Virus genome (UHGV): UHGV-0093355
Direction: 5' to 3' (one strand)
Source of the DNA: a virus
Length of the DNA: 28,268 nt
Every line of letters begins with the position of its first letter. Within the stretch, counting starts at the first letter, position 1. The notes under the pieces were generated by a model. The model worked only from the letters and a program-made list of their open reading frames with translations. It had not been told where the DNA came from and searched no databases. Below are positions 3,524-28,268 of this stretch, piece by piece. A program made the position numbers and the translations under genes.

Positions 3524-3748
3524 ATGCATACAGTTTCTGAAAATCAGTGCGGTATATACGCATTACTGCTGCAACAGGCCAGAACCGAAGCACAGGCCGA
3601 CGCTGCGACGCGCTTTTCTTCTCATCTTGATGCCATGATTCGCCACATCACAAAGGCGGAGTTATCCCGCGTGGAGATAGTCGAGCTGCTCAGTCAGGAG
3701 TCGGAAAAATTTCACAATATCGGATTGTCTCGCGGGGAGGTGCTTTGA
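3524..3748 (+). CDS. Small early hypothetical protein, 74 aa
   Basis: GGAGAAA at 3514-3519 before ATG 3524; stop overlaps the next start (TGATG). Confidence 0.5.
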
Positions 3749-4274: not shown

Positions 4275-4552
4275 GTATTCGTATTGAAATTGGCGAGCGT
4301 TATGTCGTCACAAATGACCGTTTTCAGTTCATTTTGCAGGAGAGAAAGACCGCTGAAACCGGGAAGAATGCCGGTAAAGAGTGGCTGGATGTTGTCGGCT
4401 ATTACCCCAAATTAAACCAGCTCGTTTCCGGTCTGATCCATCACGATATTTTGAGCGGTAACGCTGTCTCTTTTGAGGCGCTGAGCTCTCAGGTTGAGCA
4501 GCTCGGTCAGCAGTGTCTGACTGCGTTTCTCTGTGCGGGGAAATCTAAATGA
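4271..4552 (+). CDS. Small early hypothetical protein, 93 aa
   Basis: GGAG at 4261-4264 before ATG 4271; ATGA overlaps with both neighbours. Confidence 0.5.
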   Translation: MSIRIEIGERYVVTNDRFQFILQERKTAETGKNAGKEWLDVVGYYPKLNQLVSGLIHHDILSGNAVSFEALSSQVEQLGQQCLTAFLCAGKSK

Positions 4553-5556
4553 TAGTTGATACCCGCTGCCGAGCTGAAAGCTCTATCAATATTATTTCTG
4601 TTTCTGGCGGAAAGGATAGCCTTGCTCAATGGCTTGTTGGTATTGAAAGCGGTGTGCATTTTTTGCCGGTTTTTGCAGACACCGGGCATGAGCATCCGCA
4701 GACAATGGAGTATCTCGATTATCTGGAGAACCGACTCGGGCCGGTTAAACGGGTTAAAGCTGACTTCTCCCGACAGATTGAAGGTAAGCGCAAGTTTATT
4801 GCTGAGAAATGGCCTGTTTCTCTGGTTGAAGAGTGCGGAATGTCTCCGGGGGAAGCGGCAGAGCGCATCAATTGTGCGCTGGAAATTCTCAAGCCTACTG
4901 GTATCCCATTTCTTGATTTGTGCATGTGGAAAGGGCGATTTCCTTCCACTAAAGCCAGATTTTGCACTTTTGACCTTAAACATGAGCCAGTACGTACTCA
5001 GGTCGTGTTACCTGCGCTTAATGAGTTTGATGAGGTAATTAGCTGGCAGGGGATTCGCGCTCAGGAGTCTCCTGCGCGCGCGGGTCTGCCTGCCTGGGAA
5101 GAGGATGCGGACAATACGCCCGGGCTCCATGTATACCGTCCTATTCTGAACTGGACGCATGAGGAGGTATTTGCATTTGCAAGACGTCATGGAATTAAAC
5201 CTAATCCGTTATACCAGCAGGGATGCAGTCGTGTCGGTTGTATGCCCTGCATCCACGCCAGAAAGTCTGAATTAGCTGAAATTTTTAGTCGCTGGCCGGA
5301 AGAGGTTAAGCGTGTTGCGGAATGGGAGCGACTTGTCGCCGCATGCTCCAGACGCGGAAATTCTACTTTCTTCCCGTCAACTCATGACCCGCGTCGTGCG
5401 GAACGCCGCATTGATATTATTACTGTCGATGCTTACGGAATTGAGTCTTATCGTGACTGGGCGATGACCACGCGTGGCGGGGCACAGTTTGATTTGCTGG
5501 CTTCGGTGAATGATAAGTCAGTTTGCAGTAGTGTCTATGCCGGTGTATGTGAATGA
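4549..5556 (+). CDS. PAPS-reductase-like (PP-loop) protein, 335 aa
   Basis: N-terminal SGGKDS motif (nt 4603-4620) typical of the PAPS reductase / PP-loop family; C-terminal Cys cluster CSRVGCMPC; ATGA start/stop overlaps at 4549 and 5553 couple it to the flanking genes. Confidence 0.8.
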   Translation: MIVDTRCRAESSINIISVSGGKDSLAQWLVGIESGVHFLPVFADTGHEHPQTMEYLDYLENRLGPVKRVKADFSRQIEGKRKFIAEKWPVSLVEECGMSPGEAAERINCALEILKPTGIPFLDLCMWKGRFPSTKARFCTFDLKHEPVRTQVVLPALNEFDEVISWQGIRAQESPARAGLPAWEEDADNTPGLHVYRPILNWTHEEVFAFARRHGIKPNPLYQQGCSRVGCMPCIHARKSELAEIFSRWPEEVKRVAEWERLVAACSRRGNSTFFPSTHDPRRAERRIDIITVDAYGIESYRDWAMTTRGGAQFDLLASVNDKSVCSSVYAGVCE

Positions 5557-7826
5557 GTCATTCTTTCCAGGAGCAATACACCTGCGTACCTCCGTCAGCA
5601 TTTGCTGCAGGCACCGGTAAGGCGTTTACCGGTGCTTATGCATGGAACGCGCCACGCGAGGCCGTCGGGCGCGAAAGACCCCTTACACGTGACGAGATGC
5701 GTCAGGTGCAAGGTGTTTTATCCACGATTAACCGCCTGCCTTACTTTTTGCGCTCGCTGTTTACTTCACGCTATGACTACATCCGGCGCAATAAAAGCCC
5801 GGTGCACGGGTTTTATTTCCTCACATCTACTTTTCAGCGTCGTTTATGGCCGCGCATTGAGCGCGTGAATCAGCGCCATGAAATGAACACCGACGCGTCG
5901 TTGCTGTTTCTGGCAGAGCGTGACCATTATGCGCGTCTGCCGGGGATGAATGACAAGGAACTGAAAAAGTTTGCCGCCCGTATCTCATCGCAGCTTTTCA
6001 TGATGTATGAGGAACTCTGCGATGCCTGGGTGGATGCCCATGGCGAAAAAGAATCGCTGTTTACGGATGAGGCGCAGGCTCACCTGTATGGTCATGTTGC
6101 TGGCGCTGCACGTGCTTTCAATATTTCCCCGCTTTACTGGAAAAAATACCGTAAAGGACAGATGACCACGAGGCAGGCATATTCTGCCATTGCCCGTCTG
6201 TTTAACGATGAGTGGTGGACTCATCAGCTTAAAGGCCAGCGTATGCGCTGGCATGAGGCGTTACTGATTGCTGTCGGGGAGGTCAATAAAGACCGTTCTC
6301 CTTATGCCAGTAAACATGCCATTCGTGATGTGCGTGCACGCCGCCAGGCAAATCTGGAATTTCTTAAATCGTGTGACCTTGAAAACAGGGAAACCGGCGA
6401 GCGCATCGACCTTATCAGTAAGGTGATGGGCAGTATTTCTAATCCTGAAATTCGCCGGATGGAGCTGATGAACACCATTGCCGGTATTGAGCGTTACGCC
6501 GCCGCAGAGGGTGATGTGGGGATGTTTATCACGCTGACCGCGCCGTCAAAGTATCACCCGACACGTCAGGTCGGAAAAGGCGAAAGTAAAACCGTTCAGC
6601 TTAATCACGGCTGGAACGATGAGGCATTTAATCCAAAGGATGCGCAGCGTTATCTCTGCCGTATCTGGAGCCTGATGCGCACGGCATTCAAGGATAATGA
6701 TTTACAGGTCTACGGTTTGCGAGTCGTCGAGCCACACCACGACGGAACGCCGCACTGGCATATGATGCTTTTTTGTAATCCACGCCAGCGTAACCAGATT
6801 ATTGAAATCATGCGTCGCTACGCGCTCAAAGAGGATGGCGACGAAAGAGGAGCTGCGCGAAACCGTTTTCAGGCAAAACACCTTAACCGGGGCGGTGCTG
6901 CAGGGTATATCGCGAAATACATCTCAAAAAACATCGATGGCTATGCACTGGATGGTCAGCTCGATAACGATACCGGCAGGCCGCTGAAAGACACTGCCGC
7001 GGCTGTTACCGCATGGGCGTCAACGTGGCGCATTCCGCAATTTAAAACGGTTGGCCTGCCGACAATGGGGGCTTACCGTGAACTACGCAAATTGCCTCGC
7101 GGCGTCAGCATTGCTGATGAGTTTGACGAGCGCGTCGAGGCTGCACGCGCCGCCGCAGACAGTGGTGATTTTGCGTTGTATATCAGCGCGCAGGGCGGGG
7201 CAAATGTCCCGCGCGATTGTCAGACTGTCAGGGTCGCCCGTAGCCCGTCGGATGACGTTAACGAGTACGAGGAAGAAGTCGAGAGAGTGGTCGGCATTTA
7301 CGCGCCGCATCTCGGCGCGCGTCATATTCATATCACCAGAACGACGGACTGGCGCATTGTTCCGAAAGTGCCGGTCGTTGAGCCTTTGACTTTAAAAAGC
7401 GGCATCGCCGCGCCTCGGAGTCCTGTCAATAACTGTGGAAAGCTCACCGGTGGTGATACTTCGTTACCGGCTCCCACACCTTCTGAACACGCCGCAGCAG
7501 TGCTTAATCTGGTTGATGACGGTGTTATCGAATGGAATGACACGGAGGTCGTGAGGGCGCTCAGGGGCGCATTAAAACACGACCTGAGAACACCAAACCG
7601 TCAGCAAAGAAACGGAAGCCCGTTAAAACCACATGAAATTGCACCATCGGCCAGATTGACCCGGTCTGAACGATTGCAAATCACCCGTATCCGTGTTGAC
7701 CTTGCTCAGAACGGTATCAGGCCGCAGCGATGGGAGCTTGAGGCGTTGGCGCGCGGGGCAACAGTAATTTATGAAGGTGAGCGGTTTAGTTATGCTGTAA
7801 AAGACGATTGGGTGATGTTTTCTTAA
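5553..7826 (+). CDS. A: Rolling-circle replication initiation endonuclease, 757 aa (P2 gpA-like)
   Basis: Conserved HxH metal motif (PHWHMM) and active-site tyrosine region AGYIAKYISKN; N-terminal region recognised as P2 A-like; position at end of early operon. Confidence 0.9.
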   Translation: MSHSFQEQYTCVPPSAFAAGTGKAFTGAYAWNAPREAVGRERPLTRDEMRQVQGVLSTINRLPYFLRSLFTSRYDYIRRNKSPVHGFYFLTSTFQRRLWPRIERVNQRHEMNTDASLLFLAERDHYARLPGMNDKELKKFAARISSQLFMMYEELCDAWVDAHGEKESLFTDEAQAHLYGHVAGAARAFNISPLYWKKYRKGQMTTRQAYSAIARLFNDEWWTHQLKGQRMRWHEALLIAVGEVNKDRSPYASKHAIRDVRARRQANLEFLKSCDLENRETGERIDLISKVMGSISNPEIRRMELMNTIAGIERYAAAEGDVGMFITLTAPSKYHPTRQVGKGESKTVQLNHGWNDEAFNPKDAQRYLCRIWSLMRTAFKDNDLQVYGLRVVEPHHDGTPHWHMMLFCNPRQRNQIIEIMRRYALKEDGDERGAARNRFQAKHLNRGGAAGYIAKYISKNIDGYALDGQLDNDTGRPLKDTAAAVTAWASTWRIPQFKTVGLPTMGAYRELRKLPRGVSIADEFDERVEAARAAADSGDFALYISAQGGANVPRDCQTVRVARSPSDDVNEYEEEVERVVGIYAPHLGARHIHITRTTDWRIVPKVPVVEPLTLKSGIAAPRSPVNNCGKLTGGDTSLPAPTPSEHAAAVLNLVDDGVIEWNDTEVVRALRGALKHDLRTPNRQQRNGSPLKPHEIAPSARLTRSERLQITRIRVDLAQNGIRPQRWELEALARGATVIYEGERFSYAVKDDWVMFS

Positions 7827-7909: not shown

Positions 7910-9232
7910 ATGAGTGCGTTAAGGGATGAAGTATCTATGAAGGTTGCGTTCTCTAATGGCATGATAAACAAATTATGCAAAAGTTTTTTTTATAGTCATG
8001 GTAAGGAGCAGCCTTGTATTCAAGTCGGTAAAGCATTAGAAGATTTTGTTTTTTGGCTTGCATATAATGATGAGGAGATTGCAAAATGTGCTAGTAGGTT
8101 ATTAAAAGCATATGGCCCCCAATTAGGTATAAGTGACCTTCACAATGCGAAAAGATTATTGTTAGGTTTTTGTTCTGAAGCCTTCAATCGCATTGATGCT
8201 GATTTTCTGTCGCTTAATCCTGATAAGATTTGTGTTGATGATATTATAACGCAAGTTCATAGAAAAAATCTTAGTGAGATGTTTAAGTATTATATACTTT
8301 CACGAATAAAATTATGTCCATATATTTATAATCTTGGGTGTGCTGGCTTTGATGGGAAGCTTGAGCTTAGAGAAAATTTATTTTTATATGGCCCGGGGTT
8401 AGGGGTGGAATTACTTTCTGATATTAAAGACAAAACTGACATCAAGGTTCCTGTTGATTTTTATGATGATGAATATATGCGGCATAAACCAATTGGGAAG
8501 TATTTTCGACAGTCAAAATCCTGCTTGGTGGTGGCATATGCTTCATCAGAGGATAAAGCGGTGAAAATGTTTGATAGTTTGTTTGGAGCTTTATGTCTTG
8601 CAGTTGATAATCCTTTTGCGATTAATCGAGTTGCTGTTAATAATCTAGTTGAGTCTTTTGGTGTCGGGAAATATCATGAAAGTGAGTTTCGGGTGAATAT
8701 TCCGTCTGTATATAATTTAAATATAACGGATTCAGCCTTGGCGATACTTACAAAAATACTTTCATCACCTGATAAAAGGATGTTGTCTGCTCTTTCCTTT
8801 ATAGCGCACGGGTGGAGGGATGACAAACGTGAAAGGTTTTTGAATCAATTTATAGCATTGGATGCTATGTATGGAACCAATAATGGTAATAAAAATTCAA
8901 TTATTGGCGGTGTTTGCAGAGATGCGGCGAAAATTATTGATATTGATTCAAAAATAGGAATAATCTATGAGCTTAGGTGTAAGTTTGTTCATGGAGATAT
9001 TTCATCGTTATCTGATAATGATGGCTATCGAAAGTTTATTGATAGCTATGGCGTAGACCCTATTGTTTCTCTTTTTGAAATTCTTAAAGAATGCGTCCTT
9101 AATTATAATGGTACTTACAAAACGCCAAAAGATGTTGGAAAGGCAGATAGGTCTATTTGCGTTCCTGCTGAGTTGCTTCCAGCGGTTGAGAGGATGATAG
9201 CGGAATACAGTGGAGTTAAAAAAACAAACTAA
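7910..9232 (+). CDS. Cargo protein of unknown function, 440 aa (tin/old position)
   Basis: Single long ORF with AAGGA RBS before ATG 7910; strongly AT-rich compared with flanking A and Q; no Walker A motif, so not Old-like. Confidence 0.7.
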   Translation: MSALRDEVSMKVAFSNGMINKLCKSFFYSHGKEQPCIQVGKALEDFVFWLAYNDEEIAKCASRLLKAYGPQLGISDLHNAKRLLLGFCSEAFNRIDADFLSLNPDKICVDDIITQVHRKNLSEMFKYYILSRIKLCPYIYNLGCAGFDGKLELRENLFLYGPGLGVELLSDIKDKTDIKVPVDFYDDEYMRHKPIGKYFRQSKSCLVVAYASSEDKAVKMFDSLFGALCLAVDNPFAINRVAVNNLVESFGVGKYHESEFRVNIPSVYNLNITDSALAILTKILSSPDKRMLSALSFIAHGWRDDKRERFLNQFIALDAMYGTNNGNKNSIIGGVCRDAAKIIDIDSKIGIIYELRCKFVHGDISSLSDNDGYRKFIDSYGVDPIVSLFEILKECVLNYNGTYKTPKDVGKADRSICVPAELLPAVERMIAEYSGVKKTN

Positions 9233-13455: not shown

Positions 13456-14529
13456 ATGCGCCAGGAAACCCGCTTTAAATTTAATGCTTACCTGTCCCGT
13501 GTTGCCGAACTGAACGGCATTGATGCCGGTGATGTGTCGAAAAAATTCACTGTTGAACCGTCGGTCACCCAGACCCTGATGAACACCATGCAGGAGTCCT
13601 CTGACTTTCTGACCCGCATCAACATTGTGCCGGTCAGCGAAATGAAAGGGGAAAAAATTGGTATTGGTGTCACCGGCTCCATCGCCAGCACCACCGACAC
13701 CGCCGGTGGCACCGAGCGTCAGCCGAAGGATTTTTCGAAGCTGGCGTCAAACAAGTACGAATGCGACCAGATTAACTTCGATTTTTATATCCGCTACAAA
13801 ACGCTTGACCTGTGGGCGCGTTATCAGGATTTCCAGCTCCGTATCCGTAACGCCATTATCAAACGCCAGCCCCTTGATTTCATCATGGCCGGTTTTAACG
13901 GCGTGAAGCGTGCCGAAACCTCTGACCGCAGCAGTAACCCGATGCTGCAGGATGTGGCGGTCGGCTGGCTGCAGAAATACCGCAATGAAGCCCCGGCGCG
14001 CGTGATGAGCAAGGTCACTGACGAGGAAGGCAGCACCACCTCTGAGGTCATCCGCGTGGGTAAGGGCGGTGATTATGCCAGCCTCGATGCACTGGTGATG
14101 GATGCGACCAACAACCTGATTGAGCCGTGGTATCAGGAAGACCCTGACCTTGTGGTGATTGTGGGGCGTCAGCTACTGGCGGACAAGTATTTCCCCATCG
14201 TCAACAGGGAGCAGGATAACAGCGAAATGCTGGCTGCTGACGTCATCATCAGCCAGAAACGCATCGGTAACCTGCCAGCGGTACGCGTCCCGTACTTCCC
14301 GGCGGATGCGATGCTCATCACGAAGCTGGAAAACCTGTCCATCTACTACATGGATGACAGCCATCGCCGCGTGATTGAGGAAAACCCGAAACTCGACCGC
14401 GTGGAGAACTACGAGTCAATGAACATTGATTACGTGGTGGAGGACTACGCCGCCGGTTGTCTGGTGGAAAAAATTAAGGTCGGTGATTTCTCCACACCGG
14501 CTAAAGCGACCGCAGAGCCGGGAGCGTAA
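13456..14529 (+). CDS. N: Major capsid protein, 357 aa (P2 gpN-like)
   Basis: 357 aa; recognised as P2 N-like; follows scaffold gene. Confidence 0.95.
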   Translation: MRQETRFKFNAYLSRVAELNGIDAGDVSKKFTVEPSVTQTLMNTMQESSDFLTRINIVPVSEMKGEKIGIGVTGSIASTTDTAGGTERQPKDFSKLASNKYECDQINFDFYIRYKTLDLWARYQDFQLRIRNAIIKRQPLDFIMAGFNGVKRAETSDRSSNPMLQDVAVGWLQKYRNEAPARVMSKVTDEEGSTTSEVIRVGKGGDYASLDALVMDATNNLIEPWYQEDPDLVVIVGRQLLADKYFPIVNREQDNSEMLAADVIISQKRIGNLPAVRVPYFPADAMLITKLENLSIYYMDDSHRRVIEENPKLDRVENYESMNIDYVVEDYAAGCLVEKIKVGDFSTPAKATAEPGA

Positions 14530-14532
14530 CCG

Positions 14533-15276
14533 ATGACGAGTCCCGCACAGCGCCACATGATGCGGGTCTCGGCAGCGATGACCGCGCAGCGGGAAGCCGC
14601 CCCGCTGCGACATGCAACTGTCTATGAGCAGATGCTGGTTAAGCTCGCCGCAGACCAGCGCACACTGAAAGCGATTTATTCAAAAGAGCTGAAGGCCGCG
14701 AAAAAACGCGAACTGCTGCCGTTCTGGTTGCCGTGGGTGAACGGCGTGCTGGAGCAGGGCAAAGGTGCACAGGATGACATTCTGATGACGGTCATGCTGT
14801 GGCGTCTGGATACCGGCGATATTGCCGGTGCGCTGGAGATTGCCCGTTATGCCCTGAAGTACGGTCTGACTATGCCGGGTAAACACCGCCGCACCCCGCC
14901 GTACATGTTCACCGAGGAAGTGGCGCTTGCGGCCATGCGCGCTCACGCTGCCGGTGAGTCTGTGGAACCCCGCCTGCTGACGGACACCCTCGAGCTGACC
15001 GCCGCTGCTGACATGCCTGATGAAGTGCGCGCAAAGCTGCACAAAATCACCGGTCTGTTTCTGCGTGACGCTGGTGATGCCGCCGGTGCGCTGGCTCACC
15101 TGCAACGTGCGACACAGCTCGACTGTCAGGCAGGCGTCAAAAAAGAGATTGAACGACTGGAGCGGGAGCTGAAACCGAAGCCGGAGCCGCAGCCCAAAGC
15201 GGCCACCCGCGCCCCGCGTAAGACCCGGAGCGTGACACCGGCAAAACGTGGACGCCCGAAAAAGAAAGCCAGTTAA
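14533..15276 (+). CDS. M: Terminase small / endonuclease subunit, 247 aa (P2 gpM-like)
   Basis: 247 aa; Lys/Arg-rich C-terminal tail; position after N. Confidence 0.9.
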   Translation: MTSPAQRHMMRVSAAMTAQREAAPLRHATVYEQMLVKLAADQRTLKAIYSKELKAAKKRELLPFWLPWVNGVLEQGKGAQDDILMTVMLWRLDTGDIAGALEIARYALKYGLTMPGKHRRTPPYMFTEEVALAAMRAHAAGESVEPRLLTDTLELTAAADMPDEVRAKLHKITGLFLRDAGDAAGALAHLQRATQLDCQAGVKKEIERLERELKPKPEPQPKAATRAPRKTRSVTPAKRGRPKKKAS

Positions 15277-15375
15277 CAACCGAATGCGCCCCGCGCCAGG
15301 GCGGCACGCCGGTCAGTGAGGGTGAATCACCTGACACTGCACCGGCGTCCACCGCCCGACTTTTCAGAGGTAGTC

Positions 15376-15885
15376 ATGATGACGCTGATTATTCCGCGAA
15401 AGGAGGCTCCCGTGTCCGGTGAGGGTACGGTGGTCATCCCGCAACCGGCAGGCGACGAGCCGGTGATTAAAAACACGTTCTTTTTTCCCGATATCGACCC
15501 GAAGCGCGTCCGGGAACGTATGCGCCTTGAGCAGACCGTCGCCCCCGCCCGTCTGCGTGAGGCCATCAAGTCAGGCATGGCGGAGACGAATGCGGAGCTG
15601 TACGAGTACCGCGAACAGAAAATTGCCGCCGGTTTTACGCGTCTGGCGGACGTTCCGGCGGACGACATCGACGGTGAAAGCATCAAAGTTTTTTACTACG
15701 AGCGCGCCGTGTGTGCGATGGCGACCGCGTCGCTTTATGAGCGTTATCGCGGCGTGGATGCCAGTGCGAAAGGCGACAAGAAGGCCGACAGCATTGACAG
15801 CACCATTGATGAACTGTGGCGGGATATGCGCTGGGCGGTGGCGCGTATCCAGGACAAGCCGCGCTGCATCGTGAGTCAAATCTGA
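15376..15885 (+). CDS. L: Head completion protein, 169 aa (P2 gpL-like)
   Basis: Start at MMTLIIPRKEAP (15376) with GAGG RBS; 169 aa. Confidence 0.9.
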   Translation: MMTLIIPRKEAPVSGEGTVVIPQPAGDEPVIKNTFFFPDIDPKRVRERMRLEQTVAPARLREAIKSGMAETNAELYEYREQKIAAGFTRLADVPADDIDGESIKVFYYERAVCAMATASLYERYRGVDASAKGDKKADSIDSTIDELWRDMRWAVARIQDKPRCIVSQI

Positions 15886-16088
15886 TGAAGACCTTTGCGC
15901 TACAGGGCGACACGCTCGACGCCATTTGTGTCCGGTATTACGGGCGCACTGAGGGCGTGGTTGAGACCGTGCTCGCCGCAAATCCGGGACTGGCTGAACT
16001 GGGTGCGGTGCTGCCACACGGCACCGCCGTCGAACTGCCCGACGTTCAGACCGCGCCCGTGGCTGAAACTGTCAATCTGTGGGAGTAA
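15885..16088 (+). CDS. X: Tail protein X, 67 aa
   Basis: ATGA overlap with L stop; 67 aa starting MKTFALQGDTLDAI. Confidence 0.85.
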   Translation: MKTFALQGDTLDAICVRYYGRTEGVVETVLAANPGLAELGAVLPHGTAVELPDVQTAPVAETVNLWE

Positions 16089-16091
16089 CGC

Positions 16092-16373
16092 ATGACAGCA
16101 GAAGAAAAAAGCGTCCTGTCGCTTTTCATGATTGGGGTGCTGATTGTTGTCGGCAAGGTGCTTGCCGGTGGTGAACCCATCACCCCGCGTCTGTTTATCG
16201 GGCGCATGTTGCTCGGTGGTTTTGTCTCGATGGTTGCCGGTGTTGTTCTGGTGCAGTTTCCTGACCTGTCACTGCCTGCGGTGTGCGGCATCGGCTCCAT
16301 GCTGGGTATCGCCGGTTATCAGGTGATTGAGATTGCCATTCAGCGCCGCTTTAAGGGCAGGGGGAAACCGTAA
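16092..16373 (+). CDS. Y: Holin, 93 aa (P2 gpY-like)
   Basis: 93 aa with hydrophobic segments (SLFMIGVLIVVGKVLAGG, VSMVAGVVLV) and charged C-terminus; GGGAG RBS. Confidence 0.9.
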   Translation: MTAEEKSVLSLFMIGVLIVVGKVLAGGEPITPRLFIGRMLLGGFVSMVAGVVLVQFPDLSLPAVCGIGSMLGIAGYQVIEIAIQRRFKGRGKP

Positions 16374-16870
16374 TGCCGGTAATTAACACGCATCAGAATA
16401 TCGCTGCCTTTCTCGACATGCTGGCCGTGTCCGAAGGGACGGCGAATCATCCGCTGACGAAAAACCGGGGCTATGACGTGATAGTCACCGGACTGGACGG
16501 AAAGCCGGAAATCTTCACCGACTACAGTGACCACCCGTTCGCGCATGGCCGACCGGCGAAGGTGTTTAACCGTCGCGGTGAAAAGTCCACGGCCTCCGGT
16601 CGCTATCAGCAGCTTTACCTGTTCTGGCCGCACTACCGCAAACAGCTTGCCCTGCCGGATTTCAGTCCGTTGTCACAGGACAGACTCGCCATTCAGTTGA
16701 TCCGCGAACGCGGTGCGCTGGATGACATCCGGGCGGGACGTATTGAGCGCGCCATTTCACGCTGTCGCAATATCTGGGCGTCCCTGCCGGGAGCCGGTTA
16801 CGGTCAGCGTGAGCATTCACTGGAAAAACTGGTCACCGTCTGGCGTACCGCCGGCGGCGTACCGGCTTAA
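16373..16870 (+). CDS. K: Endolysin, 165 aa (P2 gpK-like)
   Basis: 165 aa immediately after holin (TAATG overlap); recognised as P2 K-like. Confidence 0.9.
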   Translation: MPVINTHQNIAAFLDMLAVSEGTANHPLTKNRGYDVIVTGLDGKPEIFTDYSDHPFAHGRPAKVFNRRGEKSTASGRYQQLYLFWPHYRKQLALPDFSPLSQDRLAIQLIRERGALDDIRAGRIERAISRCRNIWASLPGAGYGQREHSLEKLVTVWRTAGGVPA

Positions 16871-18814: not shown

Positions 18815-19600
18815 TTATGAGTGGTTTTTATTTGATGCTTTGTATTCTAAAACCTTCTTATTGGCGTAAAAGAATTTTGTATATGACAGGAATATAACCA
18901 GACCTGAAGTGAAATAGACGAGGGATAGTATTAATAATGCTTTTTTGTGACTGTTATTATCTTTAATCTCCTGGCTTAACCATTCGGAGTCCTCCTCGTT
19001 TAGCTGTAAGAGCTTATTGCAGGCGATCTCAGGAAGTGTGTCTTTTATAAATACGTTTTGCAGTCTCTTGCAATCGGCAAGGCTATAAGTTTTATTGAAT
19101 TCAACTGTTTTATTGTTGAAGGATAAAAGAACTTTGTCACTATAAACATAGTACATCATATTTTTATATGGTATGCCTATGGCATCTCTTACTATAGCGG
19201 ATTGTTTGTTGTGTATATAACATGCGAAGAGAATATAAATAATACTGGACAGAATTACAATTATTGTTTTAATTATGTGTGGTGGTTTTGTTATGTCACC
19301 CCAGAAGCGAGTAAGAAAAAAATACGATGTTTTTAGTTTTCCATCAATCAGCCCCTGCTGTATCATTCTCACATCTTCGATGCCTGATACATTGATTCCG
19401 TTAAGTATTTTAAATAGTTGAATGTCGCGCCACTCGCGGTCCAGTCTTTTTAATTTTTTGTCTGAATATCCAAATTTGAAATAATGTGCAATAAGCCTCA
19501 TAAGGTTACTTTTACCAAAGCTAAAAAATGCTAATACTGCAAAGACCAAAAGATACAAAACGATTAGCTCCCACACATTAGTCACATTATAGCTGACCAT
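18815..19600 (-). CDS. Multi-pass membrane protein of unknown function, 261 aa (P2 orf30 position)
   Basis: AAGGAG RBS 6 nt before the ATG; AT-rich; three strongly hydrophobic segments (N-terminal, central, C-terminal); opposite strand to the late operons. Confidence 0.7.
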   Translation of the reverse strand: MVSYNVTNVWELIVLYLLVFAVLAFFSFGKSNLMRLIAHYFKFGYSDKKLKRLDREWRDIQLFKILNGINVSGIEDVRMIQQGLIDGKLKTSYFFLTRFWGDITKPPHIIKTIIVILSSIIYILFACYIHNKQSAIVRDAIGIPYKNMMYYVYSDKVLLSFNNKTVEFNKTYSLADCKRLQNVFIKDTLPEIACNKLLQLNEEDSEWLSQEIKDNNSHKKALLILSLVYFTSGLVIFLSYTKFFYANKKVLEYKASNKNHS

Positions 19601-22109: not shown

Positions 22110-24272
22110 ATGAGCACAAAATTCAAAACTGTTATCACCACTGCCGGTGCAGCAAAGCTGGCAGCGGCAACCGCGCCGGGAGGGCGGAAGGTCAACATTA
22201 CCACGATGGCCGTCGGGGATGGCGGTGGTAAATTGCCTGTCCCGGATGCCGGACAGACCGGGCTTATCCATGAAGTCTGGCGACATGCGCTGAACAAAAT
22301 CAGCCAGGACAAACGAAACAGTAATTATATTATCGCAGAGCTGGTTATTCCGCCGGAGGTGGGCGGTTTCTGGATGCGTGAGCTTGGCCTGTACGATGAT
22401 GCGGGAACGTTAATTGCTGTGGCGAACATGGCCGAAAGTTATAAACCCGCTCTTGCCGAAGGCTCAGGGCGTTCGCAGACCTGCCGCATGGTCATCATCG
22501 TCAGCAGTGTGGCCTCAGTGGAGCTGACCATTGACACCACAACGGTGATGGCGACGCAGGATTACGTTGATGACAAAATTGCAGAGCATGAACAGTCACG
22601 ACGTCACCCGGACGCCTCGCTGACCGCAAAAGGTTTTACTCAGTTAAGCAGTGCGACCAACAGCACGTCTGAAACACTGGCCGCAACGCCGAAAGCGGTA
22701 AAGGCCGCCTATGACCTTGCTAACGGGAAATATACTGCGCAGGATGCCACCACGGCGCGAAAAGGCCTTGTTCAGCTCAGTAGTGTGACCAACAGCACGT
22801 CTGAAACGCTCGCCGCAACGCCGAAAGCGGTAAAGGCCGCCTATGACCTTGCTAACGGGAAATACACTGCACAGGACGCCACCACCGCGCGAAAAGGTCT
22901 TGTCCAGCTCAGTAGCGCCACCAACAGCGATTCTGAAACGCTGGCCGCAACACCAAAAGCGGTGAAGTCTGCCAATGACAATGCTGAAAAACGTCTTCAG
23001 AAAGATCAGAACGGTGCGGATATTCCGGGAAAGGATACCTTCACGAAAAATATCGGTGCCTGTCGTGCTTATAGCGGCGCTTTGAGCACTGAAGCCGGAA
23101 ACTGGACAACCGCTCAGTTTATTGAATGGCTGGATTCCCGTGGTGCATTTAATCATCCGTACTGGATGTGCAAAGGCTCCTGGTCATATGCAAATAACAA
23201 AATCATTACGGATACCGGATGTGGGGATATCCACCTGGCTGGTTGTGTCGTCGAGGTCATGGGAACAAAATCTGCAATCACTATTCGAGTGACCACGCCG
23301 ACAACATCAAGCGGTGGCGGTACAACCAGCGCGCAATTCACTTACATTAATCATGGGGACGGCTACTCCCCCGGCTGGCGTCGTGACTGGAATCGTCAGG
23401 GCGACGCAATGACCGGAACGATTAATCAGGATGGCGGAAGCCAGAATGCCTATATGTCTACGGCCTTATGTTCAGGCACCAGAGGCGGCAAAAAATATCT
23501 CAGAAAGTTTCGTGGTGGAGAAGGAGACACTATCTGGCATGAAACAGTGCAGGGCGGGGTAATTCGCTGGGCGACAGGAAACTATGACGCTCAGGAAGAA
23601 TTATCACTCAGCTCCGCTTATGGTCTCCGTTCTAGAGGTGAAATTACATCACTCAGTGCTAATGGTCTGCGCATTGCTTATGGCAATTATGGATTCTTTA
23701 TCAGGAATGATGGCGGCAGCACATATTTAATGCTGACGGCCTCTGGCGATAAATTTGGGACATGGAACGGTTTAAGACCGCTGACTATCAATAACGCTAA
23801 TGGCGGAGTGTCAATGGGGCATGGCCTGAGTGTTACTGGTGATATTGCCTCAAGTACCAAAGTACGCGCCGGTAGCGGGAAAAAGTTCACGGTCAGCAGC
23901 AGTAATACATCCACGAAGGAAGCCGCATTCAATTTGTGGGGAAACTCAAGTCGTCCGGTGGTGGCTGAATTAGGTGATGATGCAGGCTGGCATTTTTACA
24001 GTCAGAGAAATACAGATAACAGCATCACTTTTGCTGTTAACGGTCAGGTATCACCATCTAACTATAGTAATTTTGATTCCCGTTATGTACGCGATATCCG
24101 GCTTGGGACTCGAGTTGTCCAGACCATGCAGAAAGGGGTGATGTATGAGAAAGCAGGGCACGTAATTACCGGGCTTGGTATTGTCGGTGAAGTCGATGGT
24201 GATGACCCCGCAGTATTCAGACCAATACAAAAATACATCAATGGCACATGGTATAACGTCGCACAGGTGTAA
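22110..24272 (+). CDS. H: Tail fibre protein, 720 aa (P2 gpH-like termini, divergent middle)
   Basis: N-terminal ~190 aa and C-terminal ~130 aa recognised as P2 H-like; contains internal tandem repeats. Confidence 0.9.
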   Translation: MSTKFKTVITTAGAAKLAAATAPGGRKVNITTMAVGDGGGKLPVPDAGQTGLIHEVWRHALNKISQDKRNSNYIIAELVIPPEVGGFWMRELGLYDDAGTLIAVANMAESYKPALAEGSGRSQTCRMVIIVSSVASVELTIDTTTVMATQDYVDDKIAEHEQSRRHPDASLTAKGFTQLSSATNSTSETLAATPKAVKAAYDLANGKYTAQDATTARKGLVQLSSVTNSTSETLAATPKAVKAAYDLANGKYTAQDATTARKGLVQLSSATNSDSETLAATPKAVKSANDNAEKRLQKDQNGADIPGKDTFTKNIGACRAYSGALSTEAGNWTTAQFIEWLDSRGAFNHPYWMCKGSWSYANNKIITDTGCGDIHLAGCVVEVMGTKSAITIRVTTPTTSSGGGTTSAQFTYINHGDGYSPGWRRDWNRQGDAMTGTINQDGGSQNAYMSTALCSGTRGGKKYLRKFRGGEGDTIWHETVQGGVIRWATGNYDAQEELSLSSAYGLRSRGEITSLSANGLRIAYGNYGFFIRNDGGSTYLMLTASGDKFGTWNGLRPLTINNANGGVSMGHGLSVTGDIASSTKVRAGSGKKFTVSSSNTSTKEAAFNLWGNSSRPVVAELGDDAGWHFYSQRNTDNSITFAVNGQVSPSNYSNFDSRYVRDIRLGTRVVQTMQKGVMYEKAGHVITGLGIVGEVDGDDPAVFRPIQKYINGTWYNVAQV
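22641..22970 (+). repeat. In-frame 132-bp tandem repeat, ~2.5 copies, inside tail fibre gene
   Basis: Units at 22641-22772 and 22773-22904 are near-identical (44-aa unit QLSS[AV]TNSTSETLAATPKAVKAAYDLANGKYTAQDATTARKGLV); a third partial, diverged unit follows from 22905. Confidence 0.85.
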
Positions 24273-24275
24273 TTT

Positions 24276-24803
24276 ATGCAACATTTAAAAAATATTACTG
24301 CGGGTAATCCAAAAACTGTTGCCCAATATCAACTGACAAAAAATTTTGATGTTATCTGGTTATGGTCCGAAGAGGGAAAAAACTGGTATGAGGAAGTAAG
24401 TAATTTTCAGGAGGACACGATAAAGATTGTTTACGACGAGAATAATATAATTGTCGGCATCACCCGAGATGCTTCAACGCTTAACCCTGAAGGTTTTAGC
24501 GTTGTTGAGGTTCCTGATATTACTGCCAACCGACGTGCTGATGACTCAGGTAAATGGATGTTTAAGGATGGTGCCGTGATTAAGCGGATTTATACGGCAG
24601 ACGAACAGCAGCAACTGGCAGAATCACAAAAGGCAACTTTGCTTTCCGAAGCCGAATCCGTGATTTTGCCGCTGGAGCGCGCTGTCAGGCTGAATATGGC
24701 AACAGATGAGGAGCGTAGCCGACTGGATGCATGGGAGCGTTACAGCGTTCTGGTCAGTCGTGTGGATCCTGCAAATCCTGAATGGCCGGAAATGCCGCAA
24801 TAA
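24276..24803 (+). CDS. G: Tail fibre assembly chaperone, 175 aa (P2 gpG-like)
   Basis: 175 aa immediately after H. Confidence 0.9.
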
Positions 24804-25345
24804 GTTGTATGAGCTCTAGTGTGAGCTTACATATCTATGGCACAGAGTAAAGACTAATCTGACAGTCCGCTCTGTGCCAAAAGCGGTTCTTGCCTGAAGG
24901 CTCTGCCAGCTCGTTATTGCCCCATTCCGTGTTTTGGCTCGTTAGCTCAATCAAAAAATCCCACTCCTGCTGCCATACAAATTCTTATCTATTTGCCTAT
25001 GTTTGCCTTATCAGAAATCGACTAATAATGTATGGGTATACCGTCATGCTTAAATTTAGGTGTTTTTGTATGATTTTAACACAGAATTAGTGCGCGCCAA
25101 TTCCATTCGAAATGTATAAAAATCTATAAAATCAATTAACTATAGGTTCTTGATTTTAGTTAATAGGTTTGAAAAACGCGCCTGCGCGTTTTTCAAGATA
25201 GTGTATTTGGCAAAAAGATGATAACATATTTGCATACAAATAGTTAACCGTGCGCGTTTTTACTGGTCTAACGAAGTAAATGTGCATCCGCACGAATAAA
25301 ATATTAGGCCTATACAACACACAGCCATCACTATCGGGAATAAAT

Positions 25346-26785
25346 ATGACAGACAGGAAAACAGTAGCCGTAGTTGATGCTGGTCACCTCGTTTCACCAA
25401 TCGGTGAACTCAATGAGCAATTAGAGTGGTATCTCGTAAACGTTGGGCTCCCTGTTAATGATGTTGTTGCACCAATTGCTGAAAGAAAAAAGGTCATTGC
25501 ACAACTCGCTGATGCTCTGGAAATACTTCCTCACGCTGATCGTGGACAAGCCCACTACTTATCGCGCTTTACGATTGCAATCGCTGCTGGGCTTTTTGAT
25601 GGCGCGCTAAATTATCTTTGGGACGAAACCGTCAGGGCTCTTCGTCGCCAAGTCATTAGCTTTGATATTCAATATTTTTATTCGGTTGCCGAGAAAATCA
25701 GTTCCCGCTACAAGTCGCTTTCAAAGTCAGAAGAAATCGATCAAGTTAGCGAACACGATCTATTGGAGGGGTGCCGCCGAATAGGGTTGGTAACTGATGT
25801 TAACTATCAACGACTAGAGCATGTTAACTACATGCGCAATCATGCAAGTGCTGCACATCCAAACGACAACGAAATCGATGGCTACGAAATGCTTGGGTGG
25901 CTAACGGCATGTCTTAAACATGCCATCACCGCAGAGCCAGACCATTCTCTAATTTCCATCAAGCAACTTCTCCAGAACATTCGTACGGTAGCCATTCCAA
26001 GTGGTGACTTTTCCGTAATCTGTTCTGATTTGGCAAAACAACCGCAAGAGCGGATTGATGACTTCCTCTGGACGTTATTTGGTATCTACACGGATGATAA
26101 ATCTGCTCAGCATGCAAGAGATAATATTGAAGGCATTAGTCCAGCCGTCTGGGTTGCTGCAACCGAAGATAGAAAATACGAAATTGGTGCCCGGTTTGGA
26201 ATGCTCCGAAAAAATGGACAGGTCGCGAAGAAGGATGCCAGCCAGAAATTCCTGGAAGTGGTGGGTGGTCTCGCATACAAAGATGAAGACAGCCTTGCCG
26301 GCGAATTGATAGAGAAGCTTGAGAACCTCTATCGTGCGCACTTCGGATCAAACAATTTTTATAACGAATATCCTCATGCAAAAGCACTGAATGATAGTTT
26401 GCCCGCTACAGGAAAAATTCCCCGTGCGGCTCGGGCAATGTGGGTCAAGGTAATTTCAATTTGCTATGTCGGCAACGGGCATGGATACAGGCAAGGAGTG
26501 GACGAGCAAGCCCTCCCATATTATCAAGACTACGTAAGTAATTTCACCGAAGGGGAAACGGCCGAATTTATCAAACTTTTCTTTGAACCCGAGTTTGCCA
26601 GCCCGCTATCACGAAGCACCCCAGATAAACGAGCCCGTGATTTGGCAACGCTCCTGAAAGCCAAACACACAAACGTTCATTTACAGCGAGCGCTCGATTT
26701 AATCATTGCAGCCCCCGCGAAGACTTTATATGGTCTTTACAACACTACAGGCTTCAAGAATGTTGTTCCAAATCTTCCAGCTTAA
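25346..26785 (+). CDS. Cargo protein of unknown function, 479 aa (Z/fun position, gene 1)
   Basis: Long ORF in an AT-rich island; start set at ATG 25346 (MTDRK), though ATG 25280 is possible and neither has a strong RBS. Contains an R-N-x5-H motif (about nt 25835-25858). Confidence 0.65.
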   Translation: MTDRKTVAVVDAGHLVSPIGELNEQLEWYLVNVGLPVNDVVAPIAERKKVIAQLADALEILPHADRGQAHYLSRFTIAIAAGLFDGALNYLWDETVRALRRQVISFDIQYFYSVAEKISSRYKSLSKSEEIDQVSEHDLLEGCRRIGLVTDVNYQRLEHVNYMRNHASAAHPNDNEIDGYEMLGWLTACLKHAITAEPDHSLISIKQLLQNIRTVAIPSGDFSVICSDLAKQPQERIDDFLWTLFGIYTDDKSAQHARDNIEGISPAVWVAATEDRKYEIGARFGMLRKNGQVAKKDASQKFLEVVGGLAYKDEDSLAGELIEKLENLYRAHFGSNNFYNEYPHAKALNDSLPATGKIPRAARAMWVKVISICYVGNGHGYRQGVDEQALPYYQDYVSNFTEGETAEFIKLFFEPEFASPLSRSTPDKRARDLATLLKAKHTNVHLQRALDLIIAAPAKTLYGLYNTTGFKNVVPNLPA

Positions 26786-26869
26786 CAAATCGTTCCAGAG
26801 GACTCCGAAAAAGCTACGCTTTTTCTCCCTCCCCCCCCTGAACTCATGCGTTATGTTTAAGAGGCTGGT

Positions 26870-27772
26870 TTGAGCGGTATAAAAATAACTTTTGCTTATG
26901 ATAGCAATGGTGTTCGTGTGGATGCTGATTCTTATGGAGCTCTCCCTATAGCTCATCCTCTCGTATGTCCAGATAAAAACTGTGAAGCGTTTTTGAAGCA
27001 TGTGAATGGGTATAAGCGTGAAAGCTACGGCAAACAGCAGTTCATCCCTGCTTTTTACCGATTAGAAAAAGGCTTCGATCATAGTGAGTATTGCCGTTAC
27101 AAATCCTCTGGTAGAGATACAATTGTTGCTGGAGAGTCAGATCATGAAGTTAAAGATGCTCTTGCTAAAGGTGAATTATTGTTTCGTATTCATGTAATGG
27201 ATGCGGAAGAAAAGAAAAAGCTAAAAGATAAGGCAGGGGTCTTTCAACAGTTTCCACCGAATGATACGACTGAGCGGAAATATAGAAACCGAGGACGCAG
27301 ATCTACTTACGTTCGCACGATGAATAGCCTATTGGAAATCTATAATCATGGGCGTCTTAATCCACAAGATAGAGCAAAGATTAGGCTCATAATTGGCGGT
27401 AAGTTAGTAAAGTGGACAGATTTCTTTTACTCGACCAATCACCTAGGTAGTCTAAAATCACGCCTTCATCGTGAGGGAATTGTTCAAGCAGCCGTTGTAG
27501 TTAAAGTAAGTGTTGTAGGACTACCAAATAAAAAACTTAATGGCTTTTGCTTTATAGAGTGTAGCCCCAAGACTACTGGATTAGGTAAACATATATACAC
27601 AACGTTGAAACTAGCTAAGAGCTTCCCAAGTAGTCACTTCACTTTGAATCAAAACGTAATGGTTTTGGGAAAATTTAGCATTCCAGAACCAAGTGCCCGT
27701 GTTACTCCATCATATTTAGGTAATGAAATCAGGACACTAATAACTCACGCACAGCAAGTGGTGGTCATTTAA
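26870..27772 (+). CDS. Cargo protein of unknown function, 300 aa (Z/fun position, gene 2)
   Basis: ORF beginning with TTG at 26870, 5 nt after AAGAGG (26859-26864); co-directional, 84 bp after gene 1; AT-rich; basic (Lys/Arg-rich) central region. Confidence 0.6.
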   Translation: MSGIKITFAYDSNGVRVDADSYGALPIAHPLVCPDKNCEAFLKHVNGYKRESYGKQQFIPAFYRLEKGFDHSEYCRYKSSGRDTIVAGESDHEVKDALAKGELLFRIHVMDAEEKKKLKDKAGVFQQFPPNDTTERKYRNRGRRSTYVRTMNSLLEIYNHGRLNPQDRAKIRLIIGGKLVKWTDFFYSTNHLGSLKSRLHREGIVQAAVVVKVSVVGLPNKKLNGFCFIECSPKTTGLGKHIYTTLKLAKSFPSSHFTLNQNVMVLGKFSIPEPSARVTPSYLGNEIRTLITHAQQVVVI

Positions 27773-28070
27773 ACATAACAAATGCTTCCAGAGGGCTTCC
27801 AACGCGTGGCATTTTTGCAGTGCGTTGATTTCGGTGGTTTCAGTGTTATGCGGAAACTTGGTAGTAGCGTTGCCTGCCCTTAGGCGGGCGTTATCTCCAT
27901 AGAAATTTTAATCCGAAACTGACGAATTAGAGCAAAGGGGCTACCACGCTTTATATGTCTAGAAGCAAGTTACGGCAATGACCGCTCCTCGCTCAAAGCA
28001 GACTGTCAGATTTGATAGCGTTTGGGCTATGTAAATTGTCAGTTGGAAAATGAGTGAGTGCAAATCATGA

Positions 28071-28099
28071 CAGGCGGGCTGATTGCCCGCCTTTTCTTT
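28071..28099 (+). terminator. Rho-independent terminator downstream of cargo island 3
   Basis: Stem AGGCGGGC / GCCCGCCT with 5-nt loop, followed by TTTTCTTTATC. Confidence 0.55.
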
Positions 28100-28195
28100 A
28101 TCTGTTGTTTCATCCACTGACCAGTCAGGTCAAATAGCGTCTCATGTACTGCCCAACAGAAAATAGTTGCACCCATTAACCACGGAGTTAAACGG

Positions 28196-28268
28196 ATGAG
28201 TGACTATCATCACGGCGTGCAGGTGCTGGAGATTAACGACGGCACCCGCGTCATTTCCACTGTATCCA
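28196..28268 (+). CDS. FI: Tail sheath protein, 5-prime end only (P2 gpFI-like)
   Basis: MSDYHHGVQVLEINDGTRVISTVS recognised as the P2 FI N-terminus; runs off the window edge. Confidence 0.8.
   Translation, partial: MSDYHHGVQVLEINDGTRVISTVS

Follow-up and report, generated by a model that had tools for sequence, protein, structure and literature searches.

What is the AT-rich DNA that separates genes G and FI in the virus genome UHGV-0093355, and do the two genes that it carries form a single system? The window analysed here is the whole 28,268-nt stretch of UHGV-0093355, an Escherichia coli-type P2-like prophage whose P2 backbone is 98.6% identical to the P2-like prophages of ~1,500 complete E. 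coli genomes. In this window the H tail fibre gene (22110-24272) precedes the left backbone gene G, which encodes the tail-fibre assembly chaperone (24276-24803, plus strand; Pfam Caudo_TAP, E 1.3e-34), and the sheath gene FI starts with an ATG at 28196 on the same strand and continues beyond the window's last position, 28268. A preliminary description of this DNA had noted an AT-rich block between the G stop codon at 24803 and FI, with a ~540-bp leader, two co-directional open reading frames (ORFs) and a terminator of its own, and had proposed that the two genes are one autonomous defence or exclusion module. The block is indeed there, as are its ORFs of 479 aa (gene 1, from an ATG, 25346-26785) and 300 aa (gene 2, 26870-27772), the TTG start of gene 2, the AAGAGG ribosome binding site (RBS) at 26858-26863, the run of eight C residues at 26831-26838 and the 84-bp spacer between the genes; these and all other directional features of the block lie on the plus strand. 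We argue below that the interval is quite probably part of an integron of the Shewanella/Vibrio type that lacks its integrase and is carried as cargo in the inverted-repeat-bounded Z/fun slot of the prophage.

The borders of the foreign DNA were located with the GenBank "Z-region" records P2-EC30 and P2-EC53, whose flanks match those of the window and whose cargo is different. Homology between P2-EC30 and the window stops at 24886, restarts at 27983 and reaches 28225, where the P2-EC30 record ends, and the cargo is therefore ~24887-27982: the attI-side platform, two cassettes and the stub of a third. Its GC content is 42.9%, against 56.8% in the phage structural genes. It is bounded by a 39-nt inverted repeat (left arm 24856-24894 with the core CTGACAGTCCGCTCTGTGCCAAAAGCGG, right arm 27974-28012, the latter found by repeat search and alignment; the arms are 79% complementary), which is the "left/right inverted repeat" annotated in AJ512676 and AJ512682. 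The position between G and FI and the conserved inverted repeats on both sides are those of the P2 Z/fun hotspot, so this part of the preliminary description, foreign cargo at that hotspot, holds. When the cargo region was used as a megablast query against 5,426 complete E. coli genomes and 50,697 phage records, its flanks alone matched, in 1,019 of the genomes and 70 of the phage records, and the cargo itself matched none of either set; a common slot thus holds a rare cargo here. The hairpin with a T-run found by scanning at 28072-28099 is a real terminator-like structure, but it lies within a block that is 95% identical to P2-EC30, whose cargo differs, and it therefore belongs to the P2 backbone and is not the cassette's own.

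What kind of DNA is the cargo? Each of its genes is followed immediately by an attC-like site. We built a covariance model, R1, from 26 attC sites of a Vibrio array (locus L023), omitting the two sites that flank a gene 2 homologue there, and in the window it matches two places only. The site 3' of gene 2, attC2 (27773-27898; R'' ACATAAC, R' GTTATCT), is a full-length Vibrio-type site, similar to the Vibrio cholerae repeats (VCR-like), that aligns to the whole model (positions 1-128) with 81.9 bits and E 2.3e-18. The site after gene 1, attC1 (26780-26858; R'' GCTTAAC, R' GTTATGT), is of a shortened form, its centre being 34 nt long; the stop codon of gene 1 falls inside it, and its score is 21.3 bits (E 0.01 over 190 kb, 2e-4 locally). 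The two sites are ~1 kb apart and are linked by a 27-nt repeat that follows both stop codons, and R1 also matches both of them in three related loci, L016, L017 and L018 (below), where the attC1 orthologues reach 28-29 bits (29.4 in L016). The run of eight C residues and the 84-bp spacer are thus the body of attC1.

The ends of cassette 2 can be read directly from loci that carry gene 2 alone: these match the window from exactly 26850, in the R' GTTATGT of attC1, to 27894 (L001) or 27817 (Shewanella loci L002-5), that is, from one G/TTAT to the next, and the Vibrio array L023 has the same junction, GCGTTATGTTTAAGAGGC. Cassette 2 spans 26851-27890 and includes the AAGAGG sequence. With an attC immediately 3' of each ORF and borders at G/TT that are also homology breakpoints, genes 1 and 2 are integron gene cassettes by sequence criteria, and their recombination by an integrase is predicted.

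The other end of the array was recognized from its attI. The Shewanella-type attI is quoted as AAACGCGCATGCGCACTAATAAAATGTT (PMC9892861), and the window sequence AAATGTGCATCCGCACGAATAAAATATT at 25278-25305 matches it at 23 of 28 positions and lies 40 nt ahead of the start codon of gene 1; in L016 the orthologous site agrees with it at 26 of 28, and no other position with ≤7 mismatches was present in the loci scanned alongside. Cassette 1 begins at TTAGGCC directly after the attI core. An exact copy of attI opens both cassette arrays of the Shewanella phage M16-3 (vB_SspM_M16-3, MZ568829), which has been reported to contain a complete integron and an integrase-less array (PMC9892861); this phage is classified in the Peduoviridae (the P2 family), and its integrase-less array lies between V and S. 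The DNA in front of the window's attI is homologous to M16-3 as well, and we call this region (24971-25312) the platform: window 24971-25306 is 77% identical over 341 bp (E 1e-64) to M16-3 14284-14622, upstream of the attI of the integrase-less array, and 25152-25312 is 85% identical (E 1e-44) to the M16-3 intI-attI intergenic region, 38743-38580. M16-3 is the sole platform match among the 50,697 phage records, and strain EC50 is the sole match among the 5,426 E. coli genomes. A scan of IMG/VR with the attI core yielded six further viral contigs in which the platform is joined to other cassettes, one of which (L056) is P2-like with its attI-led array between S and V. Because of the attI match and the M16-3 homology, the ~540-bp leader of the preliminary description is better described as an attI platform preceded by P2 backbone to 24886.

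The platform contains a palindrome, GAAAAACGCGCCTGCGCGTTTTTC at 25171-25196, that is conserved in both arrays of M16-3, in L016 and in EC50. The palindrome (AAACGCGCCTGCGCGTTT) repeats the left half of attI (25278-25293; consensus AAACGCGCATGCGC), which its half-site resembles. The palindrome may be a second binding site for the integrase, or it may form a bidirectional terminator-like hairpin that shields the cargo from the H-G late transcript. In chromosomal integrons the cassette promoter is located in the attI-side platform, and the platform is presumed to be its site here. A search of Rfam gave one sub-threshold small RNA match and nothing else. In E. coli EC50 (L034, NZ_CP056073) the exact Shewanella-type attI and the palindrome are found at 7010-7151, in a conjugative-element-like region that also encodes a type IV coupling protein and a relaxase of the MobF type; next after this attI are a hypothetical gene of 434 aa and a DUF2845 gene, and the Vibrio-based covariance model found no attC in the region.

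No integrase gene accompanies these parts. A tblastn search with two IntI proteins found in the window just the P2 integrase (964-1977, 25% identity), no intI was present in the other platform loci either, and the platform homology to M16-3 ends 145 bp short of intI. The locus is thus not a complete integron; it is an integrase-less array with an attI, of the CALIN type (cluster of attC sites lacking integron-integrases). Several observations count against an integron origin or leave part of it unaccounted for. The attC1 score is weak in the window itself, and single-strand DNA folding of attC1 and attC2 was uninformative, being no better than that of shuffled sequences (z -0.6 to -1.7). The plus strand of the platform has no sigma-70 consensus promoter in a simple consensus scan. 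Gene 1 is without an attC in every other context examined.

If the block is mobile, where else has it gone? The region was compared by blastn with loci fetched through protein homologues. The whole block, window 24854-28002, recurs at 92% identity in L016 (IMG/VR contig 3300045596_000321), a lambdoid prophage in which it lies between the Q antiterminator gene and the lysozyme/Rz lysis genes. In L017 and L018 the leader (80% identity) is joined directly to the equivalent of window 26732-28003 (93%), and gene 1 is reduced to its last 19 codons; in L017 gene 2 is intact, so the architecture is platform plus gene 2. Gene 1 of the window is flanked by 14-nt imperfect direct repeats, GGCCTATACAACAC and GGTCTTTACAACAC (25309-25324 and 26721-26735), and L017 (7863-7919) and L018 have a single copy with the break between the repeats; gene 1 was therefore lost by a short-homology deletion and not by integrase excision at attI and attC. 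The third-cassette stub (27899-27982, 84 bp), which ends at the right inverted repeat, is shared with L016, L017 and L018 at 89-93%, which points to one capture event for all copies. P2 H, G and FI gave no tblastn match in L016-L018, whose backbones are therefore not P2-like. L017 is the integrase-proximal island of another prophage, with the module between a retron type XII RT-TIR gene and a DUF4238 gene, so that the module is found in moron/defence slots of three prophage backbones. The retron gene beside this gene-2-only module is at 4320-5960 of L017 (PADLOC E 5e-187).

Short repeat cores (CTGACAGTC...GCGG), which are the inner part of the Z/fun inverted repeats, travel with the cargo. They flank the module in L016 (~3612-3650 and 6740-6770) and in L017 (~7459 and 9135), and in P2-EC30 the same cores surround different cargo. 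The shared cores suggest repeat-to-repeat exchange, either site-specific or through short homology.

The above comparisons place both genes in one block, but are the two genes partners? In a co-occurrence survey of about a dozen independent contexts, they were together solely in the window and in the L016 copy of the same 92% identical module, and five distinct gene 1 contexts and six distinct gene 2 contexts were found without the other gene. Gene 1 is alone in L007-15 and L027-32; in L007-9 the ORF ± 10 bp is present at 82% identity, and remoter homologues occur in Pseudomonas, V. cholerae, V. harveyi and metagenomic loci; the 6-8 kb examined on either side of the gene 1 homologues contain no homologue of gene 2. 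In L007, outside any integron, at ~7438-7451, the first 14 nt of attC1 (TAACAAATCGTTCC) follow the stop codon unchanged, next to a gene that is itself just 82% identical, and this may be the remnant of a former cassette. Gene 2 is alone in L001-6 and L022-26, and some of these loci are classical integron arrays: L022 and L024 have it as second cassette next to the gene of an IntI-type integrase, in L023 it lies among ~30 copies of a 128-bp attC repeat in 20.9 kb together with ParE/Phd, acetyltransferase and Thoeris cassettes, and in Shewanella L002 it has an attC on both sides. The Thoeris genes of L023, ThsA-Macro and ThsB-TIR, lie next to each other at 15173-16589 of that array.

These data bear on the proposal that genes 1 and 2 form one cooperative exclusion system, for example an effector and a nucleic-acid sensor, with the leader driving both as an operon. 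In its favour, both genes point the same way with 84 bp between them, and the RBS of gene 2 is strong; in addition, neither gene is disrupted in either full copy, the window or L016, and both are under purifying selection there, with a ratio of nonsynonymous to synonymous substitution rates (dN/dS) of ~0.18, a fact that is also compatible with cooperation and to that extent speaks against separate roles. An attC separates the genes, however, which makes them two cassettes, and in chromosomal integrons true two-gene systems share one cassette (10.1101/2024.07.02.601686). Obligate partners should co-occur across unrelated loci, yet this pair is limited to one module lineage, each gene has its several contexts without the other, L017 has gene 2 without gene 1, and the families differ greatly in size (>917 gene 1 homologues versus 22 close gene 2 matches). 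Downstream of gene 1 homologues there is often a co-directional gene for 512-568 aa, a different one in each context (L010 7668-9317, L027 4595-6301, L031 9657-11195); two of these have no Pfam hit and one has a DUF723 and a T5orf172/GIY-YIG-like domain. Such variable downstream genes could hint at a design of conserved gene plus variable partner, but in BLASTP comparisons the downstream neighbours of gene 1 and the upstream neighbours of gene 2 (136-481 aa) showed no similarity to one another or to the window genes, so that what follows gene 1 elsewhere is unlike gene 2. We thus regard a cooperative two-gene system as improbable, and the claim of one autonomous two-gene module in the preliminary description is not supported.

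A more specific form of partnership would be a toxin-antitoxin-like abortive-infection pair, with gene 1 as a HEPN RNase toxin and gene 2 as its antitoxin or regulator. It would fit the invariance of the RNx5H motif of gene 1 (below) and the fact that toxin-antitoxin cassettes are common in chromosomal integron arrays. The genes are separate cassettes, however; gene 1 homologues stand alone in many genomes, again with no gene 2 homologue in the 6-8 kb flanks examined, gene 2 persists alone, and no HEPN model or fold match was found for gene 1. This pair is very improbable. As to selection on each cassette, dN/dS is 0.05-0.18 for gene 1 and 0.06-0.18 for gene 2, rising to 0.23-0.31 for gene 2 in L017 and L018, which have lost gene 1; purifying selection acts on both genes after their move into enterobacterial phages.

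What the two proteins do must be judged from their sequences and predicted structures. Neither has a match in Pfam, NCBIfam or PADLOC 2023 (PADLOC-DB 2.0), profile searches against PDB sequences gave noise, and the PHROGs matches are to unknown-function families only (phrog_27609 for gene 1 and phrog_7195 for gene 2), in agreement with the preliminary description, which could assign neither to a described family. For gene 1 a longer 501-aa frame from 25280 is also open. The AlphaFold2 model of gene 1 (predicted local distance difference test, pLDDT, 80; predicted template modelling score, pTM, 0.45) is all helices. The R-N-x5-H motif that had been pointed out in it (R164-N165-H-A-S-A-A-H171, codons 25835-25858) is present and is the centre of a strictly conserved patch: all 63 sequences compared (55-90% identity) have M163, R164, N165, S168, A170, H171 and P172. 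Our best guess is that RNx5H is a catalytic site of HEPN type, and gene 1 is no more than a candidate member of that superfamily: HEPN and Abi Pfam models match none of the 63 family members even at E≤10, and no HEPN fold match was found. Gene 1 resembles the HEPN abortive-infection proteins (Abi_C/AbiJ-like, and Taranis and Esos among integron cassettes) in being helical, in its R-N-x5-H and in its occurrence on mobile elements and in defence islands, and differs from them in the lack of a Pfam HEPN/Abi match across those 63 members.

The gene 2 model is the better defined of the two (pLDDT 81, pTM 0.73). Its N-terminal part consists of β structure and a zinc ribbon, and helices link this to a C-terminal β-barrel with the OB fold. 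The presumptive zinc ligands C33, C38, H71 and C75 (CCHC) do not vary, even among 66 relatives with 16-46% identity. An exhaustive profile search gave 253 representative clusters, and in the best 150 of these the proteins are mostly 290-330 aa long with the same layout. None of the relatives is annotated, and for the 66 distant ones Pfam and PADLOC give no consistent family, the PADLOC matches being isolated, single-member and each to a different model. We see no conserved set of acidic or catalytic residues, and because of this we read gene 2, on its model, as a non-enzymatic nucleic-acid binder. Its resemblance to the MCM N-terminal domain, MCM10, RPA and the HIN domains of AIM2/p204 is at fold level only (8-12% identity), and unlike these OB-fold binders it has its zinc ribbon N-terminal to and separate from the OB fold and no ATPase or enzymatic domain.

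Does either protein protect against phage? The surroundings of the homologues make a defence role plausible. Near gene 1 homologues are HerA with a mad6/PD-T4-6 kinase, PDC-S06, and a type I restriction-modification system with an Abi_2 gene, and near gene 2 homologues are the type XII retron (above) and a giant NERD-helicase. Integron cassettes (10.1101/2024.07.02.601686; 10.1101/2024.07.02.601719) and P2 hotspots (PMC9122126) are both documented reservoirs of defence genes. Nonetheless, the two genes could be ordinary integron passengers without an anti-phage role in a hotspot that tolerates any DNA, gene 2 perhaps being a single-stranded-DNA-binding accessory of DNA metabolism or recombination. 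Most integron cassettes are of unknown function and 16 of 88 tested V. cholerae cassettes were anti-phage (10.1101/2024.07.02.601686), P2 hotspot cargo includes non-defence genes (PMC9122126), neither protein has a known defence domain, and the OB fold is generic for nucleic-acid binding, so that an OB-fold and zinc-ribbon protein could serve DNA metabolism instead of defence. Such facts, with the empty database searches above, tell against assigning the genes to defence. Passengers of this kind would not, on the other hand, be expected to recur in defence-rich islands of unrelated hosts as both genes do, to sit in classic moron/defence slots of three prophage backbones, or to show purifying selection in both genes after entry into enterobacterial phages. 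We consider the passenger explanation possible but doubtful, and, judging from sequence and context, we give an even chance to the proposition that at least one of the two genes protects against phage.

Taken together, the following history and function would account for the locus. A block with the order platform of ~340 bp ending in attI, gene 1 with its short attC, gene 2 with its own RBS and VCR-like attC, and 84-bp stub would have been captured once from an integrase-less array such as Shewanella P2-family phages carry between S and V, and recombination at the inverted-repeat cores that they share would then have carried it from prophage to prophage. Transcription would start in the platform and read gene 1 first and gene 2 second, and the two products would act independently. 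Each is most likely a single-protein factor in competition among mobile elements, probably anti-phage: gene 1 as a large helical protein that may arrest the infected cell through an active site of RNase type, formed by the invariant RNx5H, and gene 2 as a zinc-ribbon and OB-fold protein that would bind nucleic acid of the phage or of replication intermediates.

Three known kinds of locus are close to this one. The integrase-less array of M16-3 has the same Shewanella-type attI, a homologous ~340-bp platform, co-directional cassettes with attC sites, no adjacent intI and a P2-family host; its cassettes are different, it (like L056) is placed between S and V whereas the window's array is between G and FI within the Z/fun inverted repeats, and the window has an E. 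coli-type backbone and attC sites of Vibrio type. The sedentary chromosomal integrons of Vibrio and Shewanella share with the window the single promoterless ORF per cassette with a VCR-like attC, single-protein units, and gene 2 homologues in their arrays; some of their anti-phage cassette systems also have prophage homologues (10.1101/2024.07.02.601686), and defence cassettes of mobile integrons, the BRiCs, have been described as well (10.1101/2024.07.02.601719). They differ in having intI, gene 1 is large for a cassette at 1.44 kb and its relatives are otherwise outside integrons, and, compared by description, neither window protein fits any of the 16 V. cholerae cassette systems. The P2 Z/fun locus (AJ512676, AJ512682; PMC9122126) has the G-FI position, the same inverted repeats and AT-rich foreign cargo, whereas the cargo of the window is an integron fragment; in the texts searched, two papers on the P2 hotspot and a survey of P2-like virus diversity, there is no mention of integrons or attC.

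Integrase-less arrays in phages, including a P2-family one (PMC9892861), cassettes as defence genes, and the P2 hotspot are thus already known. New are a Shewanella-type attI and Vibrio-type cassettes in an E. coli Z/fun slot and their apparent movement, within repeat cores, to lambdoid prophages. As we read it, the locus physically connects two stores of small anti-phage genes, the cassette arrays of chromosomal integrons and the variable slots of P2-like prophages; it would show a route by which marine integron cassettes enter enterobacterial phages, and integrons on plasmids could, it suggests, take phage cargo up again. Genes 1 and 2 are to be assessed singly and not as a pair. They belong to two uncharacterised families that recur in defence islands, an all-α RNx5H protein with >900 relatives and a zinc-ribbon and OB-fold protein with ~250 cluster representatives. 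The full extension of this reading is that integron arrays and prophage moron slots are one gene pool, with arrays transplanted from Shewanella P2-family phages, attC sites that are still recombinogenic so that exchange by IntI1-type integrases is possible, and genes 1 and 2 as two undescribed single-protein anti-phage systems; we think it rather unlikely that all of this will prove correct.

The window has other variable regions. Between its tail genes S and V (the P2 orf30 position) is an AT-rich 261-aa ORF without a Pfam hit (18815-19600, minus strand), in the same slot where the Shewanella P2-family phages M16-3 and L056 hold their attI-led cassette arrays. An AT-rich (34-36% GC) 440-aa ORF, also without a Pfam hit, lies directly 3' of the replication gene A (7910-9232, plus strand), in what we take to be the other P2 variable locus (the tin/old position), and is a second uncharacterised cargo of the same prophage. 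A PAPS-reductase-domain gene (E 1e-35) is found in the early region, just upstream of gene A, at 4549-5556 on the plus strand.

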